Assembly: GCA_022707725.1 (NCBI GenBank)
Contig: JAKJAB010000002.1
Coordinates: forward strand, 1 to 38,675
Direction: 5' to 3'
DNA: 38,675 bases
Source: Chloroflexota bacterium
GTDB taxonomy: Bacteria > Chloroflexota > Anaerolineae > B4-G1 > SLSP01
A program made the translations under genes and the position numbers. Shown here piece by piece: positions 3,766 through 37,961 of this stretch (its first letter is position 1; each line of letters begins with the position of its first letter). The notes below the pieces were generated by a model, which had not been told where the DNA came from, did not search any database, and was given only the letters and a program-made list of their open reading frames with translations.

Positions 3766-5841
3766 TCACGGAAGATCAAGGACACCCCAGACACAGATTT
3801 CACCGCTGGCGGAGCCGATGAAAGCAACGCCGGAGGCATCCAATACGAGCGCGGTTATGGCCTCGTTAGTAACGCGCAGGCGATGCATAGTCAGGTTCGC
3901 GTCAACAAAAAGTAGATCGCCGGCCGTTGTCCCACCAAGGATAGGGAACTTATCTCCCCCACTTTCTCCCCCAATGGGGGGAATGTAAGGGGGGGACGTC
4001 CACAGCAAGGTCGAGAGCGTGCCGTCAAGCGCCGGTCGGCGTTGACGCACTTTTACCCCCTGCGCCAGGTTCCACAACATCCACTGCCCGGTCTCGTCAA
4101 CAGATAAGGCGTAGTCGCCCTGCGGGGCAAAGGCGATGAAGCGCACTGGCGCGCTATGGCCTTCCAACACGGCGAGTTCTGTGCCGGCGGTCAAATCCCA
4201 CAGGCGAACTACGCCATCGACGGAACCCGAAAGCGCGCGCGGCGGTGAAGGATGTGTTGCCAATGCCGTCACCGGACTCTCCGAGGCAGGCAACAGCCAC
4301 ACCAGCCCGCCAGTCTCCGGCTTCACGACCCACAGATAGCCATTCTCCAGTCCTAGCACCAGTTGCGATACGCCATCGACGTAAGCCAGCGTTTGAATAC
4401 GCGAAAAGGTTGAAACCCGACTGCGCAACACGCGCGTCCACGATGGAAACGCATACACGTACAGATCGCGCTCTTGCGCCACAGCGATTTGCCCGTCAGA
4501 GCTTGCGAGCGCAAAAACGGCAGGCGGCAGCGCATTGGCGACCCGCGTGACCTGGGCCAGCGCCGGATAACTGTGGCGTAACGTGGTCGTGGACTGTAGA
4601 GCGCGCACTTCACCGTTGACGGTATCCAGCGCTAAAACCGGCTCCGGCGCAGTCTGATAGCAGCCGAGTAGCCTGGCATTTGTGGCAAACGGCTCACCTG
4701 GTGTCGGCACAGGCGTACCGGCAGCCACCGGCCAGTAATAGGGCGTCGGCGTCAACGTCGGTGTGTTGGTGAAGGTAGGCCAAGGGGTGGGTGTTGCACC
4801 GATGGCCAGCGCCGGACGTATCGTCGTCAGCGGGGCGAAGACAGATACCGGATAGAACTGCGCGACGCTCCACAAGGCTGCCAACACCCCAACCACGACA
4901 AAAAGCTTGGCAGGCCAGCCCTCGAAAATCAACACGAGCCACGTCAGGCCGAGCGCCAGCGCCAATATCCCGCCGATCAGAAACATTGGTCCCAGCACAT
5001 GCAGCAGCGCGCGCCATGATGCGGCAAACAGTCCCAGCGTCGCAGCGGAAAAAGGTCGGCCGAACAATGCCCGGAAATCCGGTGACGGAAACACTTCCAA
5101 AATGGCCAGCAGTCCGACCACGCCAACGATCAAACCAGAAGTGAGCAAAGGCACACTGATGCAGACCCACCGCTTGCGGTCGGGCACCAGCAAAGTGGCG
5201 AAGAGTGCCAGCACCAACACCAACAACGGCGCATACCACACCCAGCGCAACCACGGCGGAGGTTCGGGCCACGCGGCGCTGAGGTTCGTTTCAGCCTCGG
5301 CAAACAGGGCGACAAGATCGGCAACATAAGCCTGCCACCATGCTTGCTGTCGCTGTCCTACAGCAGAATGTGCGCCGGGATCGACGGGGATGCAGTAGCG
5401 CGTATCAGCTCCCTCACAGGACGGCAGCGCACGCCACAGCCAATCGCGCAACAGTTCGCCTTGCGCGCCGGTCAGGTACTGTTCCACGGCGGGCGTTAAA
5501 CGCCCCGGAGGTGGCGCCTCGTCGAGCGCCCAGGCTGTCCAGGCTGGCCCCAGGCGCATCACTGCCGGCTCGACATCCACAGTCGCCAATGCTGCATCGA
5601 ACAGTGCGCGCAGCGTCTCCGGCTCGCGCGAAACCCACGGTGGCCATAGTTCAGTGGGAATTTGTCGCGGCAGATCTACAGCAAGTGCAGCGCTAGCCCG
5701 TGAAACGAAATCGCTCTCACGCAGCCAGCGCTGATAGAAAACCGGATTCAACAACGCATAGCGCGCCAGCCACGTCGTGAGCGCAAAGACACTCACCAAC
5801 GATGCGAGCAGACTCAGGAATAGCGCGATACGCAGTTTCAT
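3766..5841 (-). CDS. polytopic membrane protein with a C-terminal WD40 beta-propeller
   Basis: N-terminal half holds several hydrophobic helices, followed by a TPTPWPTFTNTPTLTPTP linker. C-terminal half has WD-like repeat ends (VRLWDL, WMLWNL, ICVWGV). Start taken at ATG 5841 (MKLRIALFLSLL); the tracked 5853 start is a TTG inside the heptamer repeat. Confidence 0.8.
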   Translation of the reverse strand: MKLRIALFLSLLASLVSVFALTTWLARYALLNPVFYQRWLRESDFVSRASAALAVDLPRQIPTELWPPWVSREPETLRALFDAALATVDVEPAVMRLGPAWTAWALDEAPPPGRLTPAVEQYLTGAQGELLRDWLWRALPSCEGADTRYCIPVDPGAHSAVGQRQQAWWQAYVADLVALFAEAETNLSAAWPEPPPWLRWVWYAPLLVLVLALFATLLVPDRKRWVCISVPLLTSGLIVGVVGLLAILEVFPSPDFRALFGRPFSAATLGLFAASWRALLHVLGPMFLIGGILALALGLTWLVLIFEGWPAKLFVVVGVLAALWSVAQFYPVSVFAPLTTIRPALAIGATPTPWPTFTNTPTLTPTPYYWPVAAGTPVPTPGEPFATNARLLGCYQTAPEPVLALDTVNGEVRALQSTTTLRHSYPALAQVTRVANALPPAVFALASSDGQIAVAQERDLYVYAFPSWTRVLRSRVSTFSRIQTLAYVDGVSQLVLGLENGYLWVVKPETGGLVWLLPASESPVTALATHPSPPRALSGSVDGVVRLWDLTAGTELAVLEGHSAPVRFIAFAPQGDYALSVDETGQWMLWNLAQGVKVRQRRPALDGTLSTLLWTSPPYIPPIGGESGGDKFPILGGTTAGDLLFVDANLTMHRLRVTNEAITALVLDASGVAFIGSASGEICVWGVLDLP

Positions 5842-5843
5842 AA

Positions 5844-5913
5844 CAAATGGCAAATGGCGAATAGTGAATCACGAATTACCTGAAGTTCGTGAAGATTCGC
5901 GTAATTCGCGGCT
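5844..5913. repeat. heptamer-word array folding into a long imperfect hairpin (dcd / WD40 intergenic)
   Basis: Read in 7-nt steps: CAAATGG CAAATGG CGAATAG TGAATCA CGAATTA, then inverted ATTCG-containing words. Pairings are GCGAAT(5857-62)/ATTCGC(5904-09), GAAT(5866-69)/ATTC(5895-98) and CACGAA(5870-75)/TTCGTG(5886-91). Confidence 0.75.
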
Positions 5914-21439: not shown

Positions 21440-22891
21440 TCACCCCTTGATGACCGCCACCGGGCGCACGCGGGCCACTTTCCGCGCCAGCCCTGCACCG
21501 GCCACCGAATCCACAACGAGGCTCACGTCCTTGTAGGCATACGGCGCTTCTTCCGCCAACCCCTTCAGACTGCCGGTACGCACGACAATGCCCTGGCTTG
21601 CCAATTCCGAGCGTACATGCTCACCGCGCGCTTGCTTGAGTGCAGCGTTGCGGCTCATCATCCGCCCCGCGCCGTGACAGGTGGAGCCGAAAGTCTCATC
21701 CATCGCCGTTGACGTCCCCGCGAGCACGTAGGAGGCCGTCCCCATCGAACCGGGGACGAGCACCGGCTGTCCGATGCTGCGGTAGACGGCGGGCAGCTCG
21801 GGATGGCGGGGCGGAAACGCCCGCGTCGCCCCCTTGCGATGCACGATCACTTTCATGCGCTGCGAGCCAACCTGGTGTTCCTCGATCTTGGCGATGTTGT
21901 GCGTCACGTCGTACACCTGGGTCAGATGCCAGTTCTTCACTTTGCCCGCCATCACCTGCTCGAACGACCGGCGCACGAAATGCGCCAGGATTTGGCGATT
22001 GGCGAAGGCGTAGTTGGCCGCGGCAGACATCGCCGCCAGATACTCACGGCCCTCGCGCGAGTCCACCGGCGCGGCGACCAGCTCGCGGTCGGGGATGTCG
22101 ATGCCGTACCGGCGGGGCGCGTCCTGCAGGGCGCGGATGTACTGCCCGCACACTTCGTGGCCCAGGCCGCGTGAACCGCAGTGAATCTGTACGACGACGC
22201 GATCCTGCGCCAGTCCCATCACGTCAGCGGCCTCGGCGTCGTAGATTTCGTCCACCACGTCGATTTCGAGGAAGTGGTTGCCGGCGCCGAGCGACCCCAT
22301 CTGCGGGCGTCCGCGTTCTTTGGCGCGCGCTCCGACCGCGCCGGCCTGCGCGCCGGCAATGCGTCCCTGGCTTTCGGTGCGTTCCAGGTCGTCGCGCTGC
22401 GCGTAGCCTTTGGAAAGCGCCCACTCTGCGCCGCGCTCCAAAACGTCGTCCAGCTCCTTGTCCGAGAGCTGCACCGCGCCCTTGCCTCCCACCCCGCTCG
22501 GGCAGTTGCGGTCGATCGAAGCGATGAGGTCCTTGAGATAAGGCTCGAGCGCCGCATAGTCGATCTGCGAGGCTAGCATCCGCACGCCGCAGTTGATATC
22601 GTACCCGACACCGCCAGGGGAAATAATCCCTTCATCCCAACGGAAAGCGGCCACCCCGCCGATGGGGAAGCCGTAACCCTGATGCACGTCCGGCATCGCC
22701 ATCGCGTACTTGACGATCCCCGGCAGCATCGCCACATTCATCAACTGTGTCACGGAACTATCGCGGAACGCCGCTTCGAAGATTTCCTCGCTGCCGTAGA
22801 TGCGCGCGGGCACGCGCATCCGGCCATCGTAAGCCTGCGGCAGTTCCCACACGTAATCGTTAATCTGTTCAAAATCGCTTTTCTGCACCAT
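21440..22891 (-). CDS. rtcB: RNA-splicing ligase RtcB (3'-phosphate/5'-hydroxyl ligase)
   Basis: MVQKSDFEQINDYVWELP..., MPDVHQGYGFPIGGV, GGVGYDINCGVR, GAGNHFLEI, QIHCGSRGLGHEV, GSTCHGAGR. Start at ATG 22891 with GAGGTG upstream. Confidence 0.95.
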   Translation of the reverse strand: MVQKSDFEQINDYVWELPQAYDGRMRVPARIYGSEEIFEAAFRDSSVTQLMNVAMLPGIVKYAMAMPDVHQGYGFPIGGVAAFRWDEGIISPGGVGYDINCGVRMLASQIDYAALEPYLKDLIASIDRNCPSGVGGKGAVQLSDKELDDVLERGAEWALSKGYAQRDDLERTESQGRIAGAQAGAVGARAKERGRPQMGSLGAGNHFLEIDVVDEIYDAEAADVMGLAQDRVVVQIHCGSRGLGHEVCGQYIRALQDAPRRYGIDIPDRELVAAPVDSREGREYLAAMSAAANYAFANRQILAHFVRRSFEQVMAGKVKNWHLTQVYDVTHNIAKIEEHQVGSQRMKVIVHRKGATRAFPPRHPELPAVYRSIGQPVLVPGSMGTASYVLAGTSTAMDETFGSTCHGAGRMMSRNAALKQARGEHVRSELASQGIVVRTGSLKGLAEEAPYAYKDVSLVVDSVAGAGLARKVARVRPVAVIKG

Positions 22892-22921
22892 ATCACACCT
22901 CACTTTTTATAGTACACGGAT

Positions 22922-22982
22922 GCACACGGATTCCACGGCTAAAAACAAAAGAAAATCCGCGCGGGCCGTGAAATCCGTGTAC
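22922..22982 (-). other. strong hairpin in the archease-rtcB intergenic spacer
   Basis: GCACACGGATTCCACGGC (22922-39) pairs 16/18 with GCCGTGAAATCCGTGTAC (22965-82) around a 25-nt loop. An extra GTACACGGAT word (22912-21) offers an alternative perfect 10-bp register. Confidence 0.6.
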
Positions 22983-23010
22983 TAGATTCTTCACTCCGCG
23001 CCGGATTGTG

Positions 23011-23412
23011 CTACGTATCGAAGACGATCTCCGTCTCGTAGCCCTCCGGCGTGGCGACGACGCGTAAATCGTGGAACGTCGCCGCTTTGACGTAGCCGGT
23101 ATACGCCCGCACCGGCCCGCCGCGCAGCGTCGCCGACAATGCTGTGGGCGTCAACGCTGCAAACTCGAACGCAGTAAAAGCAAGGCCATGCACTTCGACG
23201 AAATACAACAGTTCGTTGAGCCAGTCGATCAGCAGCGTCTCCACGTCGAGCGCCGTAAGTGTCAACGTCTTTGTCTCCGGCTGCGTATCATCGACTTCCA
23301 CGAACAGCGCGAGCATCCCCTGCGCCGCCATCGTAAACAGATCGGGCAAGTCGGTGGCCCACAGATGCAGGGCCAGATCGGCGGTGTGTTCGATTTCTTG
23401 ATAGCGGCCCAT
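23011..23412 (-). CDS. archease (RtcB activator)
   Basis: 133 aa. MGRYQEIEHTADLALHLWA...LNELLY...VKAATFHDLRV... matches the archease fold signature (EHTAD, KA.T.H). Confidence 0.9.
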   Translation of the reverse strand: MGRYQEIEHTADLALHLWATDLPDLFTMAAQGMLALFVEVDDTQPETKTLTLTALDVETLLIDWLNELLYFVEVHGLAFTAFEFAALTPTALSATLRGGPVRAYTGYVKAATFHDLRVVATPEGYETEIVFDT

Positions 23413-28324: not shown

Positions 28325-28449
28325 TGTAACAAAAAACTGAAGCAGCGCAATGGTCACTGCCGTCAAGTCATTGGACAAAAACACGCGCCTGGGTATGATT
28401 GACCTTGTTTCTCGAACTAACGACTATCCGACTATTGCAGGAGATACAA

Positions 28450-30540
28450 ATGACGGATGAAGGACTCGACCGGTATTTTTTCAACCCGCAAGGGATCGCC
28501 GTCATCGGTGCGAGCGGCGATCCAACCAAACTGAGCTATGGTACGGTCCATAACCTCATCGCCCACGGCTATCGCGGGCCGATCTACCCCGTCAATCCCA
28601 AAGGTGGCGAAATTCAAGGACTGACGGCCTATCCGAGCATCCTGGACGTACCCGATCCCGTCGAACTGGCGGTGATCATGATTCGCGCCGAAGCCGCGCC
28701 TGAAGCGTTGAGCGCGTGCGGCGAGCGCGGCCTCAAAGCCGTGATCGTCGTCACTGGTGGATTCCGCGAGACGGGGCCGGAAGGCGCGGCGCTAGAAGCC
28801 TCGCTCAAGGACATCGCCGCGCGGTATAGAATGCGCCTGATCGGGCCGAACTGCGTCGGCGTGATGGATTCACATCTGCCGCTCGACACCACGTTCATCA
28901 CGATGATGCCCGAACCGGGCCACATCGCCTTCGTCTCGCACTCCGGCGCGATCTGCGGCGGCTCCATCGATTGGGCGCGCAGCGTCGGCGTGGGGTACAG
29001 CCGCATCGCCAGTCTGGGCAACCAGCTAGACGTAGACATCGCCGATGGCATCCAGATGATGAAGGACGATCCCAACACGCGCGTTATCAGCGTCTATGCC
29101 GAGGGCCTGCCCGATGGGCGGCGTTTCGTGGAGGCAGCGGCGAGCGTCTACCGCAGCAAGCCCGTGGTCATGCTCAAGGCCGGATTGACGACGGCCGGCG
29201 TACAGGCCGTGGCGTCGCACACCGGCGCGCTGGCGGGCAACAATGACGCCTACGTCGCCGCGTGTCACCGCGCGGGCGTGGTGATGGTACACTCGCTCCA
29301 GGAACAGAACGACGTGGCGATGGCCCTGGCGACGCAGCCCCTCCCACGCGGCAATCGTGTGGCTTTGCTCACCAACGCGGGCGGTCCGGCAGCGCTGGCT
29401 GCCGACGCGCTCGACCGGCAGGGCCTGGTGATGGCGCCCATCAGCGCCGCCACGCAGGAACGCCTCAAAGCCGTGACCCCACCCGGAACGCAGTTGGGCA
29501 ATCCCGTCGATATGCTCGGCGGGCCGCGCGCGGGAATGTTCAGCGCGGCGGGCAAAATCCTGCTGGAAGACCCCGACGTGGATATGCTGATGACGATGTT
29601 CGTCCCGCAGGCGATCACGCCGGTGAACGAAGTGGCCCAGGAGATGGTGAAAACCGGGCTTGGCGCGGAAAAGCCTGTCGTCGCCTGCCTTGTCGGCGGG
29701 GAGAGCCTCACCGAAACGATTTATACGCTCAACCGAGGCGGCGTCCCCTTCTACCGCGATCCCAACCGGGCCGGACGCGCGCTCGGCGGGCTGTGGGAAT
29801 ACCGCCAGCTCCGCGAGCGCCCCGACCTCACCCCCACCCCGGTCGCGGGCGTGGGCCGCGCGGCGGCGCAGGCGCTTCTGGATGCGGCGCGGGAGCAGCG
29901 CGGCGCGGGCTTCCTGGATGCGGAGACTTCCGCGCGCGTGGCCGAGGCTTACGGCATCGCCATCCCCTTCTCGGGCCTCGCCGGCAACGTCGAGGAAGCC
30001 GTCGCCCTGGCAGAACAGGCTGGGTATCCGGTCGCGCTCAAGCGCATCGCGGCGGACGTCGTCCACAAAGCGGACGTGGGGGGGCTGGCGGTGGGTTTGC
30101 GCGACGCGGACGCGGTGCGCGCCGCCTTCGAGCGCGTCACCGAGGGCGGGCGGGCGCGCGCGATGGTGCAGCGGATGATCCCCAAAGGCCAGGAGGTCAT
30201 TCTGGGCGCCCGGCGCGACGCGCAGTTTGGGCCGCAGTTGATGTTTGGGATGGGCGGCCTCTACGTCGAAATCTTGCGCGACGTGGCTTTCCGCCTCGCC
30301 CCCATCAGCGCCGAGGATGCGCGGGGGATGATCGCGGAGACCGCTGCCGGGCGCATTATGCGGGGCGTGCGCGGCGAGCCGCCGGGTGACATAGCCGCCG
30401 TCGTCGAGGCGCTACAGCGCGTCGGGCAGCTCGTGGTCGACTTCCCCAACATCGCCGAAATGGACATCAACCCGCTAATCGTCGGGCCAGCCGGCGCAGG
30501 CGTGTGGGCAGTGGATGTGCGGATACGAATCGAAGGGTGA
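28450..30540 (+). CDS. ADP-forming acetyl/acyl-CoA synthetase (fused alpha+beta; CoA-binding + ligase-CoA + ATP-grasp_5)
   Basis: From Met18 (AGGAG RBS): FFNPQGIAVIGAS...YPVNPKGGEI (CoA-binding), GPNCVGV, phosphohistidine segment VASHTGALAGN, and the C-terminal ATP-grasp half YPVALKRIAADVVHKADVGG... Confidence 0.9.
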   Translation: MTDEGLDRYFFNPQGIAVIGASGDPTKLSYGTVHNLIAHGYRGPIYPVNPKGGEIQGLTAYPSILDVPDPVELAVIMIRAEAAPEALSACGERGLKAVIVVTGGFRETGPEGAALEASLKDIAARYRMRLIGPNCVGVMDSHLPLDTTFITMMPEPGHIAFVSHSGAICGGSIDWARSVGVGYSRIASLGNQLDVDIADGIQMMKDDPNTRVISVYAEGLPDGRRFVEAAASVYRSKPVVMLKAGLTTAGVQAVASHTGALAGNNDAYVAACHRAGVVMVHSLQEQNDVAMALATQPLPRGNRVALLTNAGGPAALAADALDRQGLVMAPISAATQERLKAVTPPGTQLGNPVDMLGGPRAGMFSAAGKILLEDPDVDMLMTMFVPQAITPVNEVAQEMVKTGLGAEKPVVACLVGGESLTETIYTLNRGGVPFYRDPNRAGRALGGLWEYRQLRERPDLTPTPVAGVGRAAAQALLDAAREQRGAGFLDAETSARVAEAYGIAIPFSGLAGNVEEAVALAEQAGYPVALKRIAADVVHKADVGGLAVGLRDADAVRAAFERVTEGGRARAMVQRMIPKGQEVILGARRDAQFGPQLMFGMGGLYVEILRDVAFRLAPISAEDARGMIAETAAGRIMRGVRGEPPGDIAAVVEALQRVGQLVVDFPNIAEMDINPLIVGPAGAGVWAVDVRIRIEG

Positions 30541-30648
30541 GTGGCAACATGGAAGCGGGCTTGAACGCCGGTTCTACGTCGCCAGTTGCCGGTTGCTCTT
30601 ACAAGGAGTGTAACCGAACCTGTGGTACAGCCCCGATCATGAAAGCTG

Positions 30649-30697
30649 GCGCCGGATCATAATCCGGCGCTGCGGGGACGGCGGATTGTGATCCGCC
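30649..30697 (+). promoter_or_regulatory. two-hairpin leader motif, copy A (upstream of the SLC13 permease)
   Basis: GCGCCGGAT-CATA-ATCCGGCGC (30649-70) and GGCGGAT-TGTG-ATCCGCC (30680-97). Identical hairpins recur at 34510-34558. Confidence 0.6.
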
Positions 30698-30735
30698 TTA
30701 AGCGTTGAAGTAGAACTATTTCCCGAGGAGGCATA

Positions 30736-32511
30736 ATGACGGTAGAGATAGGCTTACTCCTGGCCATCGTGGCGGCAGCGGTGGTGCTGTTCTCGCTGGA
30801 GAACTTGCCGGTAGACGTCATCGCCCTGGGCATCACGATGACGCTCATCCTCACGGGACTGCTGCCTGCAGAGCAAGCCTTCGCCGGATTTGGCAGCAAC
30901 ACGGTGGTGATGATCTTCGGCTTGCTGGTGATCACCGCTGCGTTGATGAACACCGGCGTGACGGATATGGCCGGGCGCAAGCTGCTGCAAATGGCCGGCG
31001 ACAAACCCAAGCGTTTGCTCGCTATCGTGATGGGTATCCCGGCCATTTCGAGCGCCTTTATCAGCAACACGGCGGCGGCAGCGATGTTCACGCCGTTGAC
31101 GTTGGGGCTGGCGCGGCGGATGAGAATCAGTCCGGCCAAGCTGTTGATGCCGATGGCCTTTGCCACCATCCTCCCCAGTTCGGTCACGCTGATTGCCACG
31201 TCGACCAATATCGTCGTCAGCGACGTTATGACGCACTACGGCATGAAGCCGTTGGGGTTGTTCGAGTTGACCGTGGTGGGGCTGCCCATTGCGATTCTGG
31301 GCATCCTCTATATGCTCACCCTCGGCTACCGTCTGATCCCCGACCGCAGCACCGACGAGGAGCTTTCCACCCCGCTGGGGTTCCGTCCCTATCTGGCCGA
31401 AGTTTTGATTCTCCCCGGCTCGCCTCTGATCGGCAAAACGCTCTCTGAGAGCGGGTTGGGACGCGATATGGACCTGACTGTGCTGCGGGTCGTCCGCAAC
31501 AAAAACCACTATCTCGTCCCCCAGGCCAAGTTGCGCCTGCAAGAAGCCGACGAGCTGTTGGTGGAAGGCCAGCGCTCCCAAATCCTCAAGGTCAAGGACG
31601 CGGCGGGCATCGGCCTCAAGGCTGACATCACGCTGGCCGATCCCCGGTTGCAGGCCGGCGATACGGAACTGGTCGAAGTGATCCTGCTGCCGCAATCGCC
31701 GCTTACCGGGCGCACACTGAAGACGCTTGATTTCCGCGAGCGATATGGTTTGCAAGTACTCGGCATCAACCGTAAAGGACAAGCCATTTTTCGCAAGTTG
31801 AGCGAGACCCGGCTGCGCACCGGTGACCAACTGCTGATTCAAGGGCCGCGCACGAATATCACGGCGTTGGACGAGGACAACTTCCACATCATCGGCGCGG
31901 TGGAGCACCAGCGCCCCAACCGCAAGCGTGCGCCGATCGCCATCGGCATTTTCGTTGCCGTGCTGGCGCTGACGGCGTTCAATGCGCTATCGCTGCCAGT
32001 GTCCGTCATCCTGGGCGCGATTGGCGTCTTTGTCACGCGCTGCATCACGCCCGACGAGGCCTACCGGAACATCTCGTGGAAGGCCATCATCGTCATCGGT
32101 TGTATGCTGGCGATGGGCCGAGCCATGGAATACACCGGCGCGGCGACCTATCTCGCCGACCAGATCGTGTCGCTTACCCGTGGACTGACCAATCCGGTAT
32201 GGCTGTTCACTGCATTCTTCGTGCTGACGATGATTCTGACACAGCCGATGTCGAACCAGGCGGCGGCGGTGTTGGTGCTGCCGATTGCGATCCAGACGGC
32301 GCTGCAACTGGGGCTGAATCCACGCGCATTCGGGGTGATGATCGCCGTCGGCGCAAGCTGCTCTTTCATCACGCCGTTGGAACCGGCCTGCCTGATCGTC
32401 TACGGGCCGGGTGGCTACAAATTTACAGACTTCGTCAAAGTCGGATCGCTGCTCACAGTGCTGGTGTATCTGGTCGCCATCCTGCTGGTGCCGATATTCT
32501 GGCCACTTTGA
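30736..32511 (+). CDS. SLC13/DASS-superfamily anion permease with two central TrkA-C (RCK_C) domains
   Basis: 591 aa with hydrophobic N- and C-terminal halves. Two RCK_C-like inserts (AEVLILPGSPLIGKTL...LLVEGQ; VEVILLPQSPLTGRTL...LLIQGP). Confidence 0.9.
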   Translation: MTVEIGLLLAIVAAAVVLFSLENLPVDVIALGITMTLILTGLLPAEQAFAGFGSNTVVMIFGLLVITAALMNTGVTDMAGRKLLQMAGDKPKRLLAIVMGIPAISSAFISNTAAAAMFTPLTLGLARRMRISPAKLLMPMAFATILPSSVTLIATSTNIVVSDVMTHYGMKPLGLFELTVVGLPIAILGILYMLTLGYRLIPDRSTDEELSTPLGFRPYLAEVLILPGSPLIGKTLSESGLGRDMDLTVLRVVRNKNHYLVPQAKLRLQEADELLVEGQRSQILKVKDAAGIGLKADITLADPRLQAGDTELVEVILLPQSPLTGRTLKTLDFRERYGLQVLGINRKGQAIFRKLSETRLRTGDQLLIQGPRTNITALDEDNFHIIGAVEHQRPNRKRAPIAIGIFVAVLALTAFNALSLPVSVILGAIGVFVTRCITPDEAYRNISWKAIIVIGCMLAMGRAMEYTGAATYLADQIVSLTRGLTNPVWLFTAFFVLTMILTQPMSNQAAAVLVLPIAIQTALQLGLNPRAFGVMIAVGASCSFITPLEPACLIVYGPGGYKFTDFVKVGSLLTVLVYLVAILLVPIFWPL

Positions 32512-32640
32512 CCTTCACGGATTTTTGGTATTACCGCAATAGGAGAAAGAAAAGTAGGGAGGGTTGGGGGTATAGCCACCCCAACTCCAGATTCCCGAGC
32601 AAACTCGTGGTTATTTCCCAGCAGAGGGGGCACAGCATTA

Positions 32641-33966
32641 ATGTATCACTTTCTATCACGCTTGCGTGAGCGCGCGAGTATGCGGATCAAGGCCATGCGC
32701 ATCCGGCTGCGCGGCGCAAACCTGCAAGGCAAGATCGATCACAACATTTGGTATCTTTACGTAGAAGTCTTCTGGGCCGCGATGCTCAGTGCGGCGGCGT
32801 CTTTCAACGCCACGTATGCGGTGCGGCTGGGCGCGTCCAATACGATGATCGGTTGGCTGTCGTCAGTGCCGGCGTTGCTCGCGGTCTTTTTATTGGTGCC
32901 GTCGGCGCGTCTCCTGGAGCGAAAAACACAGCGCGCGCCGTGGATTTGGGGCAGCTTGTTCATCGCCCGGCTCGGCTATGGCCTGATTGCTGTGTTGCCC
33001 TGGCTCGTCGCCAACTATCGCGCTGAAGCCGTGGTCGGCCTGTTGATCGCCATCAGCATTCCAAGCACGTTTTTCGCAGCGGGCTTCAACCCACTGCTGG
33101 CCGATGTGGTACCCGAGCGCGACCGCGCGCGCGTCTTTGCCAACCGCAATATCATTGCCGGCCTCACCATTGCGGTCTTGACTTTTCTTGCCGGCAGATG
33201 GCTGGAGGCTGCTGCAAACATCCGCTGGGCCGCCTTTCCTGCGAATTACCAGGCAGTCTACGTCGTCGGGTTTCTGGGCGCGATGATCAGCCTCGTCTAC
33301 CTGCTCAAAATCAGGGTACCGGAGAGCAAAGTTGTCACGCAGACGTCGAAGCAAAGGGCGTCTTTGGCGCAGCTCAAGACGATGTTTGGGGAAAATCGCG
33401 CTTTCGCGCGGATCATCCTCAACACATTGCTTTTCGGGTTCGGCGAATGGCTGGTCTCGCCGCTGTACATCATTTTCTTCCTGCGTCATCTCCACGCCAC
33501 AGACGGTTGGGTGGGGCTGAACAGCACGTTAGCCAACCTCGGCGTCATCGTCGGCTACGCGCTCTGGCAGAGAATCATCTACCGGTTAGGCGACGCGCGC
33601 ACGCTGCTTATCACCATCCCGCTTTCTGCAAGCTATGCTTTTCTGGTGAGCCTGTTTCCCAACCTGACGGCGATCCTGGTGTGGGGCGTGCTGATCAACA
33701 TCATCAACCCCGGCGTGAACCTCAGCCACTTCAACATCCTGCTCAAGCTCTGTCCCAGCGAACGTCGCGCGAGCTACATCGCCTTCTATTCGACGATCAT
33801 CAATATGGGCGCGTTCATCGGCCCGTTGGTCGGCGTGGCGCTATCCAAGACACTCGACATCCGGCTGCTGCTCATCATCGGCGGCAGTATACGGTTGATC
33901 GGCGCGTTGATGTTCCACGTGTTTCCCATCAAAGTAGCCGACCCAACGAGAGCGGGGGCGGAGTAG
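32641..33966 (+). CDS. MFS transporter
   Basis: 441 aa with ~12 TM segments and an MFS-like loop motif after TM2 (PSARLLERK). The start is uncertain (ATG 32641, or Met14/Met19). Confidence 0.8.
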   Translation: MYHFLSRLRERASMRIKAMRIRLRGANLQGKIDHNIWYLYVEVFWAAMLSAAASFNATYAVRLGASNTMIGWLSSVPALLAVFLLVPSARLLERKTQRAPWIWGSLFIARLGYGLIAVLPWLVANYRAEAVVGLLIAISIPSTFFAAGFNPLLADVVPERDRARVFANRNIIAGLTIAVLTFLAGRWLEAAANIRWAAFPANYQAVYVVGFLGAMISLVYLLKIRVPESKVVTQTSKQRASLAQLKTMFGENRAFARIILNTLLFGFGEWLVSPLYIIFFLRHLHATDGWVGLNSTLANLGVIVGYALWQRIIYRLGDARTLLITIPLSASYAFLVSLFPNLTAILVWGVLINIINPGVNLSHFNILLKLCPSERRASYIAFYSTIINMGAFIGPLVGVALSKTLDIRLLLIIGGSIRLIGALMFHVFPIKVADPTRAGAE

Positions 33967-34006
33967 GGAGTAAGGAGTAAGGAGTAGGAAGTAAGGAGTA
34001 GGAAGA
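33960..34006 (+). repeat. tandem heptamer array GGAGTAR x6 (plus a partial unit) between the MFS stop and the ATL start
   Basis: GGAGTAG GGAGTAA GGAGTAA GGAGTAG GAAGTAA GGAGTAG GAAGA-ATG. The first unit contains the MFS stop codon (33964-66) and the last abuts ATG 34007. Confidence 0.9.
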
Positions 34007-34369
34007 ATGGCAAATTACGCAGCAGAGTTCCAAAATCAAGGATCAAAAACCGAGAATCAGTTCGAGCAAGTGTATGCGCTGGTGAAGGCGATTCCGCGGG
34101 GGAAGGTGGCCGCGTATGGGCAGATTGCGCGATGGCTCGGCTGGCCGCGCGGGGCGCGCACCGTCGGTTGGGCACTGCGCGCACTGCACACGGACGAGGT
34201 TCCCTGGTATCGCGTGGTCAACGCGCAAGGGCGCGTGAGCTTACGGGATGACGGTGGCTTGCAACGGGCGCTGCTGGAAGCGGAAGGCGTCGTCTTCGAT
34301 ACTGCCGGGCGGATCGATCTGAAGGTCTACGGCTGGACCGGGCCAGTTATTCCGTGGGGTGAGGAATAG
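34007..34369 (+). CDS. alkyltransferase-like protein (ATL; MGMT DNA-binding domain without the acceptor cysteine)
   Basis: VYALVKAIPRGKVAAYGQIA (HTH) followed by VPWYRVVNAQGRVS. The MGMT PCHRV active site has Trp in place of Cys, as in the ATL proteins (YbaZ/Atl1) as I recall them. Confidence 0.8.
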   Translation: MANYAAEFQNQGSKTENQFEQVYALVKAIPRGKVAAYGQIARWLGWPRGARTVGWALRALHTDEVPWYRVVNAQGRVSLRDDGGLQRALLEAEGVVFDTAGRIDLKVYGWTGPVIPWGEE

Positions 34370-34446
34370 GAAATGGGAAATGGGAAATGGCAAATGGTGA
34401 ATGGCAAATGGTGAATGGCAAATGGTGAATGGTGAATGGCAAATGG
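34363..34446 (+). repeat. tandem heptamer array NRAATGG x12 immediately after the ATL stop
   Basis: GGAATAG GAAATGG x3 CAAATGG TGAATGG CAAATGG TGAATGG CAAATGG TGAATGG TGAATGG CAAATGG. Higher-order 14-mer (CAAATGGTGAATGG) x3 at 34391-34432. Confidence 0.95.
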
Positions 34447-34456
34447 CAAAAGAAAG

Positions 34457-34485
34457 TTGACGTTTTAGCCAGTTTGCTCTATGAT
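34457..34485 (+). promoter_or_regulatory. sigma70-like promoter driving the 34.5-kb non-coding leader
   Basis: TTGACG (34457-62), 17-nt spacer, TATGAT (34480-85). Confidence 0.5.
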
Positions 34486-34509
34486 TGAAAATGCATCCAC
34501 AAAATGCTT

Positions 34510-34558
34510 GCGCCGGATCATAATCCGGCGCTGCAAGGATGGCGGATTGTGATCCGCC
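34510..34558 (+). promoter_or_regulatory. two-hairpin leader motif, copy B
   Basis: GCGCCGGAT-CATA-ATCCGGCGC (34510-31) and GGCGGAT-TGTG-ATCCGCC (34541-58). Both hairpins are identical to copy A, and similarity continues to an AAGGAG-ATG at 34586-34599. Confidence 0.6.
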
Positions 34559-34585
34559 TTAAGTGTTGAAATAGGATAATTTACC

Positions 34586-34713
34586 AAGGAGTTTCCATGT
34601 GGAACTCCACACCAACGAGGACGAAAATAAAACTTTCCGTGTATTCTGTGTATTCCGTGGTTTATTTTCGAAGGAGTCTCCATGTGGGATTCCACACCAA
34701 CGAGTGACGAAAA
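34586..34713 (+). repeat. direct duplication of a ~42-nt SD-ATG module
   Basis: Unit 1 (34586-34627) is AAGGAGTTTCCATGTGGAACTCCACACCAACGAGGACGAAAA. Unit 2 (34671-34713) is AAGGAGTCTCCATGTGGGATTCCACACCAACGAGTGACGAAAA. Identity is ~90% with a 1-nt indel. Confidence 0.85.
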
Positions 34714-34719
34714 GGATTT

Positions 34720-34790
34720 CCTCAACGGATTCAACGGAATCTAACGGATATTTTTCCGTTTAATCCGTTCGATCCGTTGAGGCCATTTTT
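34720..34790 (+). terminator. 9-mer-word hairpin plus T-tract directly upstream of the epimerase RBS
   Basis: Left arm words are ctcaacggat tcaacggaa tctaacgga; inverted words are tccgttt aatccgttc gatccgttgag. This gives a ~27-bp imperfect stem (34720-34782) followed by CCATTTTT, then AAGGAGG and GTG 34803. Confidence 0.65.
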
Positions 34791-34802
34791 AAGGAGGGCC
34801 TT

Positions 34803-35729
34803 GTGCGAATTTTGGTCACGGGTGGGGCAGGTTTTCTGGGGAGCGCGCTGGCGAATGCTTTAGCGCGCCAGGGCCACGAAGTGTTGGTATTGGACGATCT
34901 CAGCGCCGGGGATCAAACGCGGCTGGATGCGAAGGTGTTTTTTCATCGCGGGGAGATCACCAACCGGCCCAAGCTCTGGACGCTCTTGCAGGGCGTGCAG
35001 TGCGTCTATCATCTCGCCGCGCGCGTACTGGTGGCGGAATCGATCCTCTATCCGCGCGAATACAACGACGTGAACGTCGGCGGCACCGTCGCGCTGTTGG
35101 AGGCGATGCGCGACGTGGGTGTCCCGCGTCTGGTCTTCACTTCGTCGGGCGCGGTCTACGGAGCGCAGGAAACGCAGCCGGTGTCCGAAACGACCACGCC
35201 CAACCCACAATCCCCCTACGCGGTGAGCAAACTCGCGGCGGAATACTACGTCCACACGATTGGCGCGCTCTGGGGGACGACGACCGTGGCCTTGCGGATC
35301 TTCAACGCTTACGGCCCAGGACAGCCATTGCTGCCTTCGCACTCACCGGTCGTTTCGCGGTTCATCTACCAGGCGTTGGGCGGCGGCTCGCTGGTGATCT
35401 TCGGCAGCGGCGAGCAGACGCGCGATTTCGTCTACGTCGATGACGTGGTGCGCGCGCTCGTCGCCGCAGCGACCGCGCCCGACGTTGCCCGCCGCACGAT
35501 CAACGTTGGCAGCGGCGAGGACACCGCGATCCAAATGCTGGCCCAACACGTGCTCACCCTGACCGGCTCTTCCAGCAACATCATCAACAGCCCGGTGGAG
35601 AGCGGCGGCGTGACCCGCCTGCGCGCCGATGTGCGTCTGGCGCGCCAAATTCTGGGCTACGAACCCAAAGTCACATTGCAGGAGGGCCTGCGGCGCACAC
35701 TAGCCGAAGACCCACGTTTCCAAAAGTAG
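34803..35729 (+). CDS. NAD-dependent epimerase/dehydratase (extended SDR, UDP-glucose 4-epimerase-like)
   Basis: ILVTGGAGFLGSAL (Rossmann), SSGAVYG and YAVSKLAAE (YxxxK). GTG start with AAGGAGG 5 nt upstream. Confidence 0.9.
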   Translation: MRILVTGGAGFLGSALANALARQGHEVLVLDDLSAGDQTRLDAKVFFHRGEITNRPKLWTLLQGVQCVYHLAARVLVAESILYPREYNDVNVGGTVALLEAMRDVGVPRLVFTSSGAVYGAQETQPVSETTTPNPQSPYAVSKLAAEYYVHTIGALWGTTTVALRIFNAYGPGQPLLPSHSPVVSRFIYQALGGGSLVIFGSGEQTRDFVYVDDVVRALVAAATAPDVARRTINVGSGEDTAIQMLAQHVLTLTGSSSNIINSPVESGGVTRLRADVRLARQILGYEPKVTLQEGLRRTLAEDPRFQK

Positions 35730-35812: not shown

Positions 35813-37144
35813 ATGTTAATCACACACGCTTGCATTGCCACGCTTGGTGATGAGCCACAGTTGCTCGAGGATGGCGCGATGCTCATTCGCGATGGGAAGA
35901 TCGCGGCGCTGGATACGACGATGGCGTTGGCGACGCAGTACCCGCACGAGGAACGTCTGGATGCCGGTGGGCAGCTCGCGCTGCCGGCGATGCTGTGCGG
36001 GCACACGCACTTCTACGGCGCGTTTGCGCGCGGTTGGGCCTATCCCGGCCCACCGGCGACGCGCTTCGGCGAAATCCTCGAACGGTTGTGGTGGCGACTC
36101 GACAAGGCGCTGACGATGGACGACGTCCGGTATTCCGCGTTGGTGTGTCTGGTCGACGCCATCCGCCACGGCGCGACGACGCTCATCGATCACCACGCCA
36201 GCCCCAACGCCATCGAAGGCTCGCTCGATATACTGGCCGAAGCGGTAGCGCAGTCCGGCATCCGCGCCTCGCTGTGCTACGAAGTGACCGACCGCGACGG
36301 CCCCGCGCGCGCGGCGGCGGGCATCGCGGAGAACGCGCGCTTCCTGCGACGGATGCGCGCCGAACCGCATCCACAGTTGGCGGCCTCGTTTGGGCTGCAC
36401 GCCTCGCTGACGTTGAGCGATGCGACGCTGTCCGACGTCGTTGCCGCCGCTGCCGGACTCGAAACCGGCTTCCACATCCACGCGGCGGAAGGCATCGAGG
36501 ACGTGGAGGACAGCCTGGCGAAGTCCGGCCAGCGCGTCATCCATCGGCTGCACGACGCGGACATCCTCGGCCCACGCTCCATCGTCGCGCACGCCGTCCA
36601 TGTCGATGAAAGCGAGATGGACGTGTTGGCGGAAACCGGCACGTGGGTCACCCACCAACCTCGTTCGAATATGAACAACGCCGTCGGCTTCGCGCAGGTG
36701 GAGGCGATGCTGGCGCGCGGCGTGCGGATCGCGTTGGGCAACGACGGCTTCAGCAACAACATGGTCGCCGAGATGAAGATGGCCTATCTCGGCCACAAGC
36801 TGGCGCAGCGCGATCCACGAGCGATGCCCGCCGACCTCGTCTTCCGCCTGGCCTACGACGCCAACGCCAAACTGGCGCGCCTCTTCTGGCCCGCGCAAAC
36901 GCTGGGCGTGCTCGCGCCCGGCGCGATGGCCGACCTCATTCTGGTGGACTACAAGCCAACGACACCGCTGACTGCGGGCAATCTACCGTGGCACATCCTC
37001 TTCGGCTACGAAGCCTCTGCCATCACCACCACGATCAGCGCCGGGCGTGTGCTGATGCAGGATCGCCGCCTGCTGACGTTGGATGAAGAGGCCATCACCG
37101 CCCGCTCGCGCGAACTGGCTGCGGCGGTATGGGCGCGAGTTTGA
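35813..37144 (+). CDS. ssnA: SsnA-type putative aminohydrolase (amidohydrolase superfamily, chlorohydrolase-like)
   Basis: Collinear with E. coli SsnA as I recall it: [69 protein letters not shown]. Confidence 0.85.
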
Positions 37145-37175
37145 GCTTTGGAATATAACGTTTATCACTATCTTC

Positions 37176-37203
37176 TTGTTCGTTAGTTATGTTATGCTAG
37201 AAT
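37176..37203 (+). promoter_or_regulatory. promoter-like element placing the TSS at or next to the trmD ATG
   Basis: TTGTTC (37176-81), 16-nt spacer, TGC-TAGAAT (extended -10; TAGAAT at 37198-203). Only 8 nt separate the -10 from ATG 37212, and there is no SD. Confidence 0.4.
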
Positions 37204-37211
37204 ACAGTCAG

Positions 37212-37961
37212 ATGCGGATCGACATTCTTACGCTATTTCCAACGATGTTCTGCGGAGCGCTGCAAGAGAGCATTCTCAAGCGCGCTCAACAACGTGGACT
37301 CCTGCACCTGGTCATCCATCAGATCCGCGATTACGCGCTGGACCGGCATCAGATGACGGACGACCTGCCTTATGGCGGGGGCGTGGGTATGATTATGAAG
37401 CCCGAGCCGGTTTTCCGCGCCGTGCGCACGGTGTTGGGCGGGACACAAGCGCCGGTGATTCTGTTGACCCCACAAGGGCGGACGTTCACCCATGCAGTGG
37501 CCCAGGAACTGGCTCAACATCCCCGATTGATGCTGATTTGCGGTCATTACGAAGGCGTCGACGAGCGCGTGCGCGAGCGCCTGATCATCGATGAACTTTC
37601 GATTGGCGATTACGTGTTGACCGGCGGCGAGCTGGCGGCGATGGTGGTGGTGGATGCCGTCGCGCGTTTCGTGCCGGGCGTGTTGGGGGCCGCCGAGGGC
37701 GCGCACGACGATTCCTACGCCGGCGGCCTGTTGGAAGGCCCGCAGTACACACGCCCCCCGGTTTTCGAAGGTCGGCAGGTTCCGGAAGTTTTGTTGTCGG
37801 GCGATCATGCCCGGATTGCGCGATGGAAGCGTGCGATGGCGTTGCAGCGGACGTTGGTGCGGCGTCCCGATCTTTTGGAAGCTGCATCCTTGAGCGCCGA
37901 GGATGAGGCGCTCTTGCGGGAATTTCGTCGCACTTTAGGTGAACCCGATGGCGTGGAGTGA
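37212..37961 (+). CDS. trmD: tRNA (guanine37-N1)-methyltransferase
   Basis: From Met44 of the tracked ORF: [13 protein letters not shown]..., [71 protein letters not shown]-like. Confidence 0.93.

Follow-up and report, generated by a model that had tools for sequence, protein, structure and literature searches.

The double-hairpin leader that occurs twice in the 38,675 nucleotides of Chloroflexota DNA analysed here (the whole stretch is referred to below as the window) belongs to a lineage-specific dispersed repeat of Anaerolineae (Chloroflexota). The repeat is present in high copy, in sense orientation only and 5' of the ribosome-binding site (RBS) of unrelated genes. It therefore belongs with insertion-type repeats, as opposed to riboswitches or operators that serve a particular gene. 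On a judgement slightly better than even, we infer that it is a REPIN/BIME-like repeat carried in a polar cassette, which would be co-transcribed with its neighbours as a generic stable RNA module.

Two copies and a remnant in the window

A first-pass annotation, made from the window alone, had proposed that 30645-30738 and 34506-34599 align without gaps, share two identical hairpins and end in a Shine-Dalgarno sequence (SD) and ATG at the same distance. Pairwise comparison bears this out: 78 of 94 positions are identical in ungapped register, the runs identical between the copies are 25 and 23 nt long (48/48 in sum), the hairpin centres lie 29 bp apart in both copies, and the SD and ATG are equally spaced from the hairpins. 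In a repeat search of the window, the two emerge as one 89-nt repeat whose copies are 87% identical. CGGAT-N4-ATCCG occurs four times in the window, every time within these copies, against a chance expectation of 0.04. The flanks are also similar, with an outer helix (P1, AAUGCUU/AAGCGUU), an A/U-rich tail and, at copy 1, a 39-nt left module. The features are listed below.

22998-23010, minus strand: remnant CACAATCCGGCGC, corresponding to the hairpin-1 loop and 3' arm, directly after the TAG of the ORF at 23412-23011 (minus strand)
30603-30641, plus strand: copy 1 left module, 'box' variant AAGGAG-TGTAACCGAACCTGTGGTACAGCCCCGATCATG, with blastn-short matches beside other family copies
30642-30648, plus strand: copy 1 P1 outer helix, 5' strand AAAGCTG (family consensus AATGCTT)
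30649-30670, plus strand: copy 1 hairpin 1, GCGCCGGAT-CATA-ATCCGGCGC, with compensatory changes across the family in the outer four pairs
30671-30679, plus strand: copy 1 linker, purine-rich TGCGGGGAC
30680-30697, plus strand: copy 1 hairpin 2, GGCGGAT-TGTG-ATCCGCC
30700-30706, plus strand: copy 1 P1 outer helix, 3' strand AAGCGTT
30707-30725, plus strand: copy 1 conserved A/U-rich tail GAAGTAGAACTATTTCCCG
30726-30738, plus strand: SD AGGAGG, spacer and ATG of the CitMHS/TrkA_C permease gene (30736-32511)
34457-34485, plus strand: sigma-70-like promoter TTGACG-17-TATGAT, matching 10/12 consensus positions
34503-34567, plus strand: copy 2 core, comprising P1 5' strand (34503-34509), hairpin 1 (34510-34531), linker (34532-34540), hairpin 2 (34541-34558) and P1 3' strand (34561-34567)
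34568-34599, plus strand: copy 2 tail (34568-34585), SD AAGGAG (34586-34591) and ATG (34597)
34597-34628, plus strand: 'box' module A, ATGTGGAACTCCACACCAACGAGGACGAAAAT, a recurrent companion repeat
34671-34715, plus strand: 'box' module B, which has an SD-like AAGGAG and an ATG of its own
34721-34781, plus strand: large hairpin built from TCAACGGAT units, which form a dispersed repeat of their own, in the spacer between copy 2 and the epimerase GTG

Copy 1 is intercistronic, with a CoA-ligase-like gene upstream and the permease gene downstream. Its left module has blastn-short matches of 86-98% identity in loci L201, L152, L186, L203 and L234, and the 62 nt to the left of this module (30541-30602) are unique sequence. 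Upstream of copy 2, the sigma-70-like promoter ends 17 nt 5' of P1, outside the repeat. The ATG assigned to the end of each copy holds for its spacing, but that of copy 2 (34597) opens only a 36-codon pseudo-ORF, which is itself a repeat module and not the epimerase gene; the latter starts at GTG 34803, 206 nt further on. The hairpin of TCAACGGAT units in the intervening spacer gave 33 blastn-short match rows over 24 fetched sequences. A 'chimeric half-copy' had also been described at 22998-23010; related sequence is indeed present there, but it consists of the hairpin-1 loop and 3' arm in reverse complement. The pattern CAYAATCCGGCGC has three matches in the window, namely this remnant and both full copies, where 0.03 are expected.

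A dispersed family in Anaerolineae

Public scans and profile searches of the fetched DNA recovered at least 157 sites of this element, in contigs of Anaerolineae and of Thermoflexus. The first public scan returned at least 119 stretches, of which about a dozen are family members, and the second at least 120, nearly all of which are. By extrapolation, the copy number would be about one per 20-40 kb, or ~100 per genome. Searches of plasmid, phage and viral-contig collections for the element gave no match, and a literature search by sequence words and topic found no description of the family. Rfam returned no matches for the whole window at the gathering score and nothing overlapping the element at E up to 10 for 30400-34900, in agreement with the initial impression that it is no known riboswitch class.

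The core is an inverted pair of palindromic units of 22 nt and 18 nt, each composed of GCTT followed by a 7-9-bp stem with a 4-nt loop, and separated by a 9-nt spacer. The 14-nt core of hairpin 2 is the reverse complement of that of hairpin 1 except for one transition, which corresponds to a G-U wobble in RNA. Around this core, a cassette of ~90-125 nt is built from P1, the double hairpin, the A/U-rich tail and, optionally, a 'box' hairpin on the left. A left box with an SD-like motif and ATG is present in about a quarter of copies, and the box hairpin shows covariation at the nucleic acid level (TGTGG/CCACA, TGAGC/GCTCA, ACCGG/CCGGT). The core sequence is very highly conserved among copies that precede different genes in different metagenome-assembled genomes (MAGs). 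Changes in CGGAT/ATCCG are present in copies recovered by profile alone, and the apparent invariance of this motif arises because the search patterns imposed it. Tandem arrays and decayed or truncated copies also occur (L178, L099, L068 and window 22998), and other repeat families share spacers with the element.

Orientation and placement at gene starts

Full-length copies are strictly polar with respect to genes. Among main-type copies, an SD-led gene start lies 15-70 nt past the core on the sense side in 61/83 and on the antisense side in 0/83. Of the 97 main-type copies for which an ORF was called, 71 have their start codon 35-48 nt beyond hairpin 2, and the usual distance is 37-46 nt. The right flank of the element is always the SD, and covariance model scores are ~100 bits on the sense strand and ~50 on the antisense strand. 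The leader position first noticed in two copies is borne out, with the element in sense orientation, 5' of a gene and ending at the SD. Only the divergent core-only copies resemble REPs in placement, with a gene start beside the core on the sense side in 4 and on the antisense side in 8 of 28. The six-frame ORF context survey is noisy in G+C-rich DNA and gives rough trends only. Many scattered copies had been named as the mark of a REP/MITE-like repeat; many copies were found, but they respect gene starts and orientation.

The downstream genes are functionally diverse: 55 distinct downstream proteins match 84 Pfam families, 25 of which, among the matches listed, each occur once, and the families include GH95, IlvD, CysS, RsgA, Lhr and UbiX. 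With at least 157 sites before unrelated genes, and with the element missing from eight permease orthologues, the suggestion of a riboswitch or gene-specific regulator is not sustained.

Filled and empty sites

Comparison of orthologous loci reveals filled and empty sites, and the element is an insertion at the permease locus. It is missing upstream of all eight permease orthologues compared, at 89-70% identity (L240-L243, L252-L255). Five of these (L240, L252-L255) have the same CoA-ligase gene upstream, with a stop-to-ATG spacer of 12-77 nt, such as TGA-AGGAGGGGCGCT-ATG, and in contigs with an identical permease the spacer is 195 nt. The permease SD is also found at orthologous sites without the element. 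Three further pairs of filled and empty sites were identified besides the permease locus, and the element is kept in 37 of 51 closer ortholog comparisons. Where both members of an orthologous pair carry the element, core identity is 91% vs 76% at four-fold degenerate sites, a difference that is inflated because pair members were found with a pattern fixing 24 core positions; without these positions the values are 85.7% vs 75.8%.

Covariation and predicted folds

Compensatory stem mutations, which the first-pass annotation had proposed looking for, support both stems across copies. Double-sided changes occur at 12 pairs and in 56 cells, a level reached by 0/500 shuffles. Hairpins 1 and 2 are unlike each other at the outer stem positions, where the changes are compensatory, and in one copy (L172:10449) compensation extends across the two units. 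Both the minimum free energy (MFE) fold and RNAalifold predict a 14-bp duplex between hairpin 1 and hairpin 2, forming one long hairpin, and thermodynamics prefers this rod over two hairpins, as in paired inverted REP repeats (REPINs). The alternative three-way-junction fold agrees with the outer-stem covariation and has a conserved purine-rich junction. The SD is unpaired in most predicted folds.

Within the main type alone, covariation is not above shuffles, and main-type stem mismatches carry no sense-strand wobble bias (G-U 49 vs A-C 56), so that selection on RNA and selection on single-stranded DNA or a cruciform are not separable. One loop position is biased (T-G 28 vs C-A 3), a bias for which subfamily ancestry could account. 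Kissing loops were considered and rejected: the loops are complementary and covary, but the inverted-unit architecture and the rod fold give the same complementarity. Loops of 4 nt are also too small for a 4-bp kissing complex.

Proposed mechanism and alternative explanations

In the favoured reading, the cassette would have been inserted directly 5' of the SD of unrelated genes, always in sense orientation. Lacking a promoter of its own, it would be transcribed by read-through: copy 2 as part of the 5' UTR behind the sigma-70-like promoter, and copy 1 as the intercistronic spacer between the CoA-ligase-like gene and the permease gene. The RNA is predicted to fold very stably in the cell, either as two hairpins closed by P1 or as one long rod, and the SD would stay single-stranded a few nucleotides 3' of the fold. 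With the read-through RNA stably folded and the SD left free, any effect on mRNA stability or translation would thus be generic and post-transcriptional, with the element acting as a 5' stabiliser, processing site or RBS insulator; it would neither sense a ligand nor control a specific pathway. A promoter inside the repeat was considered and rejected: the only candidate is a weak -10-like CAYAAT in the hairpin-1 loop, and the intercistronic copies argue against it.

An unlikely though realistic alternative is a selfish REPIN/MITE-like repeat with no host role, whose position at the SD reflects target-site choice alone. Insertion polymorphism, the inverted doublet with its rod-like fold, the tandem arrays and decayed or truncated copies, the presence of other repeat families in the same spacers and the lack of wobble bias in the stems are all consistent with it. 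AGGAG-like motifs flank both sides in about a quarter of copies, which also counts for it. As a candidate target-site duplication, an SD-like RGGAR peaks at -41/-42 relative to GCTT, although only 24 of 101 copies have one in this region, vs 12 in a control window. Against this reading, searches for a transposase, for terminal inverted repeats and for a conserved tag were negative. A tblastn search of the family loci with an IS200 TnpA query found no transposase, its sole match being a weak one to an unrelated locus of Chitinophagaceae. Terminal inverted repeats are lacking, since there is no complementarity between the left ends (TCCCCATG... or TGTAACC...) and the right end (...CTATTTTCG), and no GTAG or CGTC tag stands at the head of either unit in the alignments, where GCTT precedes the units. 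Shared orthologous copies also evolve more slowly than synonymous sites, subject to the ascertainment effect noted above, and 0/83 antisense copies at gene starts would require extremely strand-specific targeting. In L164, the region between two inverted copies was considered as a possible transposase locus and rejected, its genes being a methyltransferase and a membrane glycosyltransferase-like protein.

It is quite unlikely that the element is either a new strand-specific, non-autonomous element that targets the SD (AGGAG) or the handle of a hitherto unrecognised global post-transcriptional regulator or processing enzyme of Anaerolineae. An SD-targeting element, if real, would have installed a standard structured leader before about 100 genes.

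A global RNA regulon, in which the double hairpin binds one trans-acting factor and ~100 unrelated mRNAs are controlled together, is also quite unlikely. Candidates for this factor are RNA-binding proteins, endoribonucleases and second messengers, the last as in the many-copy c-di-GMP-I riboswitch. Strict sense orientation and a fixed distance to the SD speak for such a regulon, as does a core that is highly conserved before different genes in different MAGs and exceeds four-fold sites in conservation at shared orthologous positions, and the purine-rich junction and the covariation-backed three-way junction are likewise in keeping with it. However, the gene set is themeless and includes housekeeping genes (cysS, ilvD, rsgA), the element is gained and lost at the same locus between close relatives, and main-type stems are invariant in sequence and do not covary. 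No switching expression platform is seen in the predicted folds, most of which leave the SD free, and Rfam provides no match.

The first-pass annotation had also raised two palindromic operators for a dimeric DNA-binding regulator; in this reading a dimeric or tetrameric transcription factor would repress the downstream genes. The two perfect palindromes with half-site CGGAT, their 29-bp centre spacing, the dyad symmetry of the core and the location of the copy 2 hairpins just 3' of the sigma-70-like promoter all fit this reading. It is nonetheless very improbable. Several copies lie inside operons and start within about 10 nt of the stop codon of the preceding co-directional gene (L160, L126, L190, L225, L139, L099, L137), which leaves no room for a promoter, and the promoter-like sequences seen upstream of other copies vary in their distance. 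The family is strand-specific, whereas operators are orientation-free; the compensatory outer-stem changes point to base pairing and not to protein contacts, and the apparent CGGAT/ATCCG invariance came from the search patterns, profile-only copies varying there.

A short leader peptide coupled to downstream translation, such as MLAPDHNPALRGRRIVIRLKR ending at the TGA in GTTGAAG, can be dismissed: an in-frame ATG in AAAATGCTT, the common TGA/TAA of GTTGAAG/GTTAAAG in the alignment and the SD-like motif and ATG of the left box in about a quarter of copies favour it, but it is rejected because 1-nt linker indels break the frame in L133, L143, L166, L170 and L174 and the stop is gone in several copies (GTTGCAG, GTCGAAT, GTTCAAG), and in addition window copy 1 has no ATG (AAAGCTGG) and the box hairpin covaries as nucleic acid.

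Comparison with known repeats and leaders

The closest parallels to the repeat are the BIMEs of enterobacteria and the REPIN doublets of Pseudomonas (Bertels and Rainey 2011, as cited in PMC3575422). Like these, the Anaerolineae element consists of short palindromes in high copy in non-coding DNA, arranged as head-to-head units with a short spacer, so that the doublet can form one long hairpin; it likewise has subfamilies that differ in stem and loop, with compensation within and between units, and would act as RNA hairpins once transcribed. REP units carry a conserved GTAG (or CGTC) tetranucleotide at one end and lie for the most part 3' of genes, where the flanking ORFs are unidirectional or convergent (PMC3733652). 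In contrast, the Anaerolineae units lack this tag, and the full-length form lies 5' of the SD, is sense-only and has a conserved polar tail. No RAYT-type (IS200/IS605-type Y1) transposase gene was found near copies in the family loci with the IS200 TnpA query.

Putative mobile promoters, or cases of promoter reuse, have been described by Matus-Garcia, Nijveen and van Passel (2012; PMC3575422), where Correia and ERIC elements are also named; the present family resembles the former in having >80% identity over >50 nt before non-homologous genes, in being common to different taxa and in being absent from Rfam (PMC3575422). Unlike mobile promoters, the Anaerolineae repeat is apparently promoterless, the promoter of copy 2 being outside the repeat. 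Correia elements (Neisseria) and ERIC elements (Enterobacteria/Yersinia) are ~100-150 nt long, lie next to genes and are co-transcribed with them, and their hairpins alter mRNA processing or stability; they have terminal inverted repeats, are found in both orientations and vary in presence between strains. The Anaerolineae family shares their approximate length, location beside genes and presence/absence polymorphism, but lacks terminal inverted repeats, keeps to one orientation and is fixed in position at the SD.

In operons of Mycobacterium tuberculosis, MIRUs are dispersed between cistrons and co-oriented with the genes on either side; they are tandem units whose small ORFs overlap the stop and start codons of the adjacent genes. 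The Anaerolineae element is similarly a dispersed intercistronic repeat co-oriented with its flanking genes, but it conserves no reading frame and is followed by a separate SD. The c-di-GMP-I (GEMM) riboswitch is present in many copies in the 5' leaders of functionally diverse genes within one genome and, like the present element, places two adjacent hairpins there. Unlike c-di-GMP-I, the element has no Rfam match, its stems are invariant in sequence, some copies are intercistronic, and it shows insertion polymorphism in close relatives and an extrapolated ~100 copies per genome.

Implications

Recognition of the family avoids its being catalogued as a new riboswitch or operator, and documents a REP-doublet-like repeat in the poorly studied, mostly uncultured Anaerolineae of digesters and activated sludge. 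The restriction of the full-length form to the 5' side of the RBS and to the orientation of the gene is unusual. If this polarity reflects SD targeting, it would represent a new insertion specificity; if it reflects selection, the element would serve in nature as an 'RBS insulator' or 5' stabiliser and would lend itself to reuse. The element also parts operon genes that are nearly contiguous in relatives. Such repeats break short-read assemblies, which matters for reading gene order in the window, where a recombinant or chimeric join may have arisen from them, the candidate being the join to the epimerase gene at 34700-34800; short-read contigs were found to terminate inside the element.

The two copies in the window and their neighbours

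The two near-identical leaders reported in the first-pass annotation are borne out: positions 30645-30738 and 34506-34599 align without gaps and are identical at 78 of 94 positions, and the pair was also recovered by a repeat search. Identical runs of 25 nt and 23 nt hold hairpin 1 (GCGCCGGAT-CATA-ATCCGGCGC) and hairpin 2 (GGCGGAT-TGTG-ATCCGCC) in both copies, and the four occurrences of CGGAT-N4-ATCCG in the window, against 0.04 expected, all lie inside them.

Genes (Pfam), promoter and companion repeats around the two copies
28399-30540, ADP-forming acyl-CoA synthetase-like gene
30603-30641, 34597-34628 and 34671-34715, 'box' modules (SD-like sequence, ATG, 5-bp covarying hairpin and CCAACGA..ACGAAAAT)
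30736-32511, CitMHS/TrkA_C permease, behind copy 1
32641-33966, MFS transporter
34007-34369, MGMT-like gene
34457-34485, sigma-70-like promoter TTGACG-17-TATGAT, rated good, with copy 2 about 17 nt behind it
34721-34781, large hairpin of TCAACGGAT/ATCCGTTGA units, a second dispersed repeat family
34803-35729, NAD-dependent epimerase

The SD and ATG of copy 2 lead only into a 36-codon ORF, which is itself a repeat module, and two box modules and the large TCAACGGAT hairpin lie between this copy and the epimerase start. Tandem heptamer arrays (GGAGTAA x6; AAATGGC/AAATGGT x11) occupy both spacers flanking the MGMT-like gene (33960-34005 and 34371-34450), and a heptamer array was also listed at 5838-5871. 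The spacer array beside the MGMT-like gene is also present in the metagenome contig L198, and the equivalent spacer of locus L241 has GGGGATT-type arrays.

A family of dispersed repeats

A scan of one genome per species with a pattern of two CGGAT-N4-ATCCG hairpins returned clear homologues from at least about a dozen loci, amid unrelated REP-like matches; among the matches listed, most homologues were in Anaerolineae MAGs (five within one fragmented MAG), with single cases in a Thermoflexus MAG and in a bin carrying the label Armatimonadota. A tighter pattern run over metagenome contigs gave at least 120 stretches, almost all of them genuine family members, with bioreactors, activated sludge and comparable settings as the sources, and one contig, L198 (MTKY01051648.1), carries both window copies. 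Proteins clustering with two window proteins at 90% identity or more are named Anaerolineae bacterium. A profile search of all DNA retrieved for comparison found at least 157 family sites. Mean column identity is 87% in an alignment of 68 full copies, the family consensus reads ACGAAAATGCTT-GCGCCGGATCACAATCCGGCGC-TGCGGGGAC-GGCGGATTGTGATCCGCC-TT-AAGCGTT-GAAGTAAGGCTATTTT followed by the SD, and a covariance model scores about 100 bits on the sense strand versus about 50 on the antisense strand. No Rfam family matched the element, whether at gathering score or with E relaxed to 10, plasmid, phage and viral-contig collections gave no match to it, and a literature search found no description of the repeat family.

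The loose two-hairpin pattern also caught an actinobacterial pair motif, operator-like in look, in which CGGAT-N4-ATCCG stands beside GCTAGC, and typical GTAG-tagged REP doublets in Planctomycetes (loci of these two unrelated finds include L011, L018, L048, L053, L111; L001, L007, L012, L058).

Insertion polymorphism

Permease orthologues were retrieved across a range of protein identities to the window's permease, and the element is absent at all eight orthologous loci of 89-70% identity (L240-L243, L252-L255). The upstream CoA-ligase gene is kept in six of the eight (L240, L241, L252-L255), and in five of these six the stop-to-ATG spacer is just 12-77 nt, as in L240 (TGA-AGGAGGGGCGCT-ATG) and L255 (TGA-TTCGTAACAAGGAGGGCGTA-ATG); the L241 spacer, of 188 nt, is occupied by other repeats. 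The window's 195-nt spacer is also found in L257 and L258, contigs with an identical permease. The SD AGGAGG is found in both filled and empty states, so this SD belongs to the gene itself and the extra DNA abuts it on the 5' side; at the permease, 30541-30602 of this DNA is unique and the repeat begins at the box, at 30603. Three more filled/empty pairs were found (L148/L128 versus L145; L129/L202 versus L201; L234 versus L229), and a screen within the retrieved loci gave 37 ortholog comparisons with the element at both genes. Judged from filled and empty orthologous sites, the element is an insertion, gained and lost over roughly 10% protein divergence.

Such repeat elements break short-read assemblies: contigs recurrently terminate within the element or its companion repeats, and Logan contigs with an identical permease or epimerase (L259-L261, L246-L251, L256) begin 44-50 nt 5' of the gene, inside the repeat. 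In other assemblies (L244, L245), the identical epimerase sits behind divergent HflX and FtsJ genes on the other strand, and the repeats upstream of it are limited to box B and the TCAACGGAT hairpin, the double-hairpin core being absent. L198 shares copy 2 and its companion repeats, after which it continues into sequence unlike the window's. As far as about 34785 the window agrees with the L198 haplotype, and beyond that point with that of L244, the switch falling within 34700-34800 at a repeat of about 115 nt, so the join to the epimerase would reflect either genuine recombination or a chimeric assembly across this repeat. In either case, copy 2 is not to be read as the epimerase leader.

Position relative to genes

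Among 111 main-type (full-length) copies surveyed for spacing, 97 had a callable downstream ORF, and in 71 of these an SD-led start codon lies 35-48 nt past hairpin 2 (mode 40-42). Several apparent exceptions obey the same rule, having an in-frame TTG further upstream, a tail that is shortened or an apparent ATC/ATA start (RsgA-like N-terminus). Where at least 200 nt were available on both sides (83 copies), a gene starts 15-70 nt past the core in 61 copies on the sense side and in none on the antisense side. The 55 distinct downstream proteins map to 84 Pfam families, all 25 listed families occurring singly, and include glycoside hydrolases, IlvD, LarC, CysS, RsgA, Lhr, UbiX, transporters and regulators. 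The stop codon of a co-directional upstream gene lies 10 nt or less before the repeat in several copies (L160, L126, L190, L225, L139, L099, L137), and other copies lie behind promoter-like sequences at variable distances; on these grounds, the repeat is taken to be without a promoter of its own and located in 5' UTRs or intercistronic spacers.

Structure and conservation

The stems of the main type alone are too conserved for covariation. When divergent subfamilies were added (116 distinct copies; model of two hairpins, the outer helix P1 and a loop-loop pairing), the compensatory stem changes that the first-pass annotation had proposed to look for were found at 12 pairs, with 56 cells carrying two-sided changes, a level reached by 0 of 500 shuffles and by no slid control. 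The core of hairpin 2 reverse-complements that of hairpin 1, so all four arms are mutually complementary, which energetically favours a single rod: nearest-neighbour energies are about -42 kcal/mol for the rod, in which hairpins 1 and 2 form 14 bp closed by P1, versus -34 for a three-way junction. RNAalifold likewise gives the 14-bp duplex, and the consensus has a further helix, CGAAAAU/AUUUUCG. The flanks of the rod model are without covariation, whereas the local hairpins do covary at their outer pairs. Decayed copies show compensation both across units (L172:10449) and within hairpin 1 (L098:2893), and such dual compensation is the described behaviour of REP doublets/REPINs. Selection acting specifically on RNA was not indicated by the mismatches, as the stems have no wobble bias (G-U 49 versus A-C 56) and one loop position alone is biased. 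Orthologues that both have the element agree at 91% of core positions versus 76% of four-fold degenerate sites, the core figure being subject to ascertainment bias; by our own calculation it is about 86% after 24 pattern-fixed positions are dropped, and the bias persists.

Identity and proposed action

The element fits a lineage-specific dispersed repeat whose core has REP-doublet (BIME/REPIN) architecture, sharing with these doublets short palindromes paired head to head, a fold resembling a rod and a division into subfamilies. Unlike them, it lacks a GTAG or CGTC tag, has a polar tail and has no transposase detected nearby in the sampled DNA, and its sense-only placement immediately 5' of the SD is opposite to that of typical REPs. 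It also qualifies as a 'putative mobile promoter' in the operational sense of Matus-Garcia and colleagues, yet carries no promoter.

A generic action on the mRNA, rather than a gene-specific one, appears most likely. Its position and the promoter before copy 2 point to transcription together with the downstream gene, and the transcribed element would fold very stably, the structure ending a few nt before a free SD. Its possible roles are protecting the downstream cistron against 5'-end-dependent decay once the transcript has been processed, presenting a double-stranded target for processing, or preventing upstream structure from involving the ribosome-binding site. It may instead be purely selfish, with insertion directed to the SD, or belong to a global regulon in which one trans-acting factor would serve the many copies. 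The paired operators suggested in the first-pass annotation are unlikely, since copies occur between cistrons, the family is strand-specific and the outer stems change in a compensatory way. The unrelated downstream gene set and the insertion polymorphism exclude its other suggestion, a riboswitch, as a metabolite sensor.

Companion repeats and decayed copies

The box (SD-like RGGAR, ATG and 5-bp hairpin) stands to the left in about one quarter of copies, and its stem covaries (TGTGG/CCACA, TGAGC/GCTCA, ACCGG/CCGGT). It is sometimes found to the right of the tail as well, and this recurrence on both sides suggests head-to-tail modular arrays. The TCAACGGAT/ATCCGTTGA hairpin gave 33 blastn-short rows over 24 of the compared sequences, often near the double-hairpin element, and its sole Rfam match is at chance level (Plastid-psbJ-4, E 0.96). 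A 13-nt hairpin-1 remnant lies directly past the TAG of an archease-sized ORF (23412..23011, minus strand), in the spacer (22900-23013) toward an RtcB-sized ORF (22903..21440, minus strand); several CACGGAT/ATCCGTG repeats, which are of a third type, occur in the same spacer. In locus L178 (6700-7430), six subfamily copies with a hairpin 2 stem of GGGGCGGAT...ATCCGCCCC follow one another in tandem about every 110-145 nt, and no SD or gene starts follow them. Elsewhere in the window, the longest TrmD ORF (37083-37961, 292 aa) overlaps the end of an amidohydrolase gene; the annotated proteins of relatives have 249-255 aa, and the gene therefore probably begins about 110 nt further downstream.
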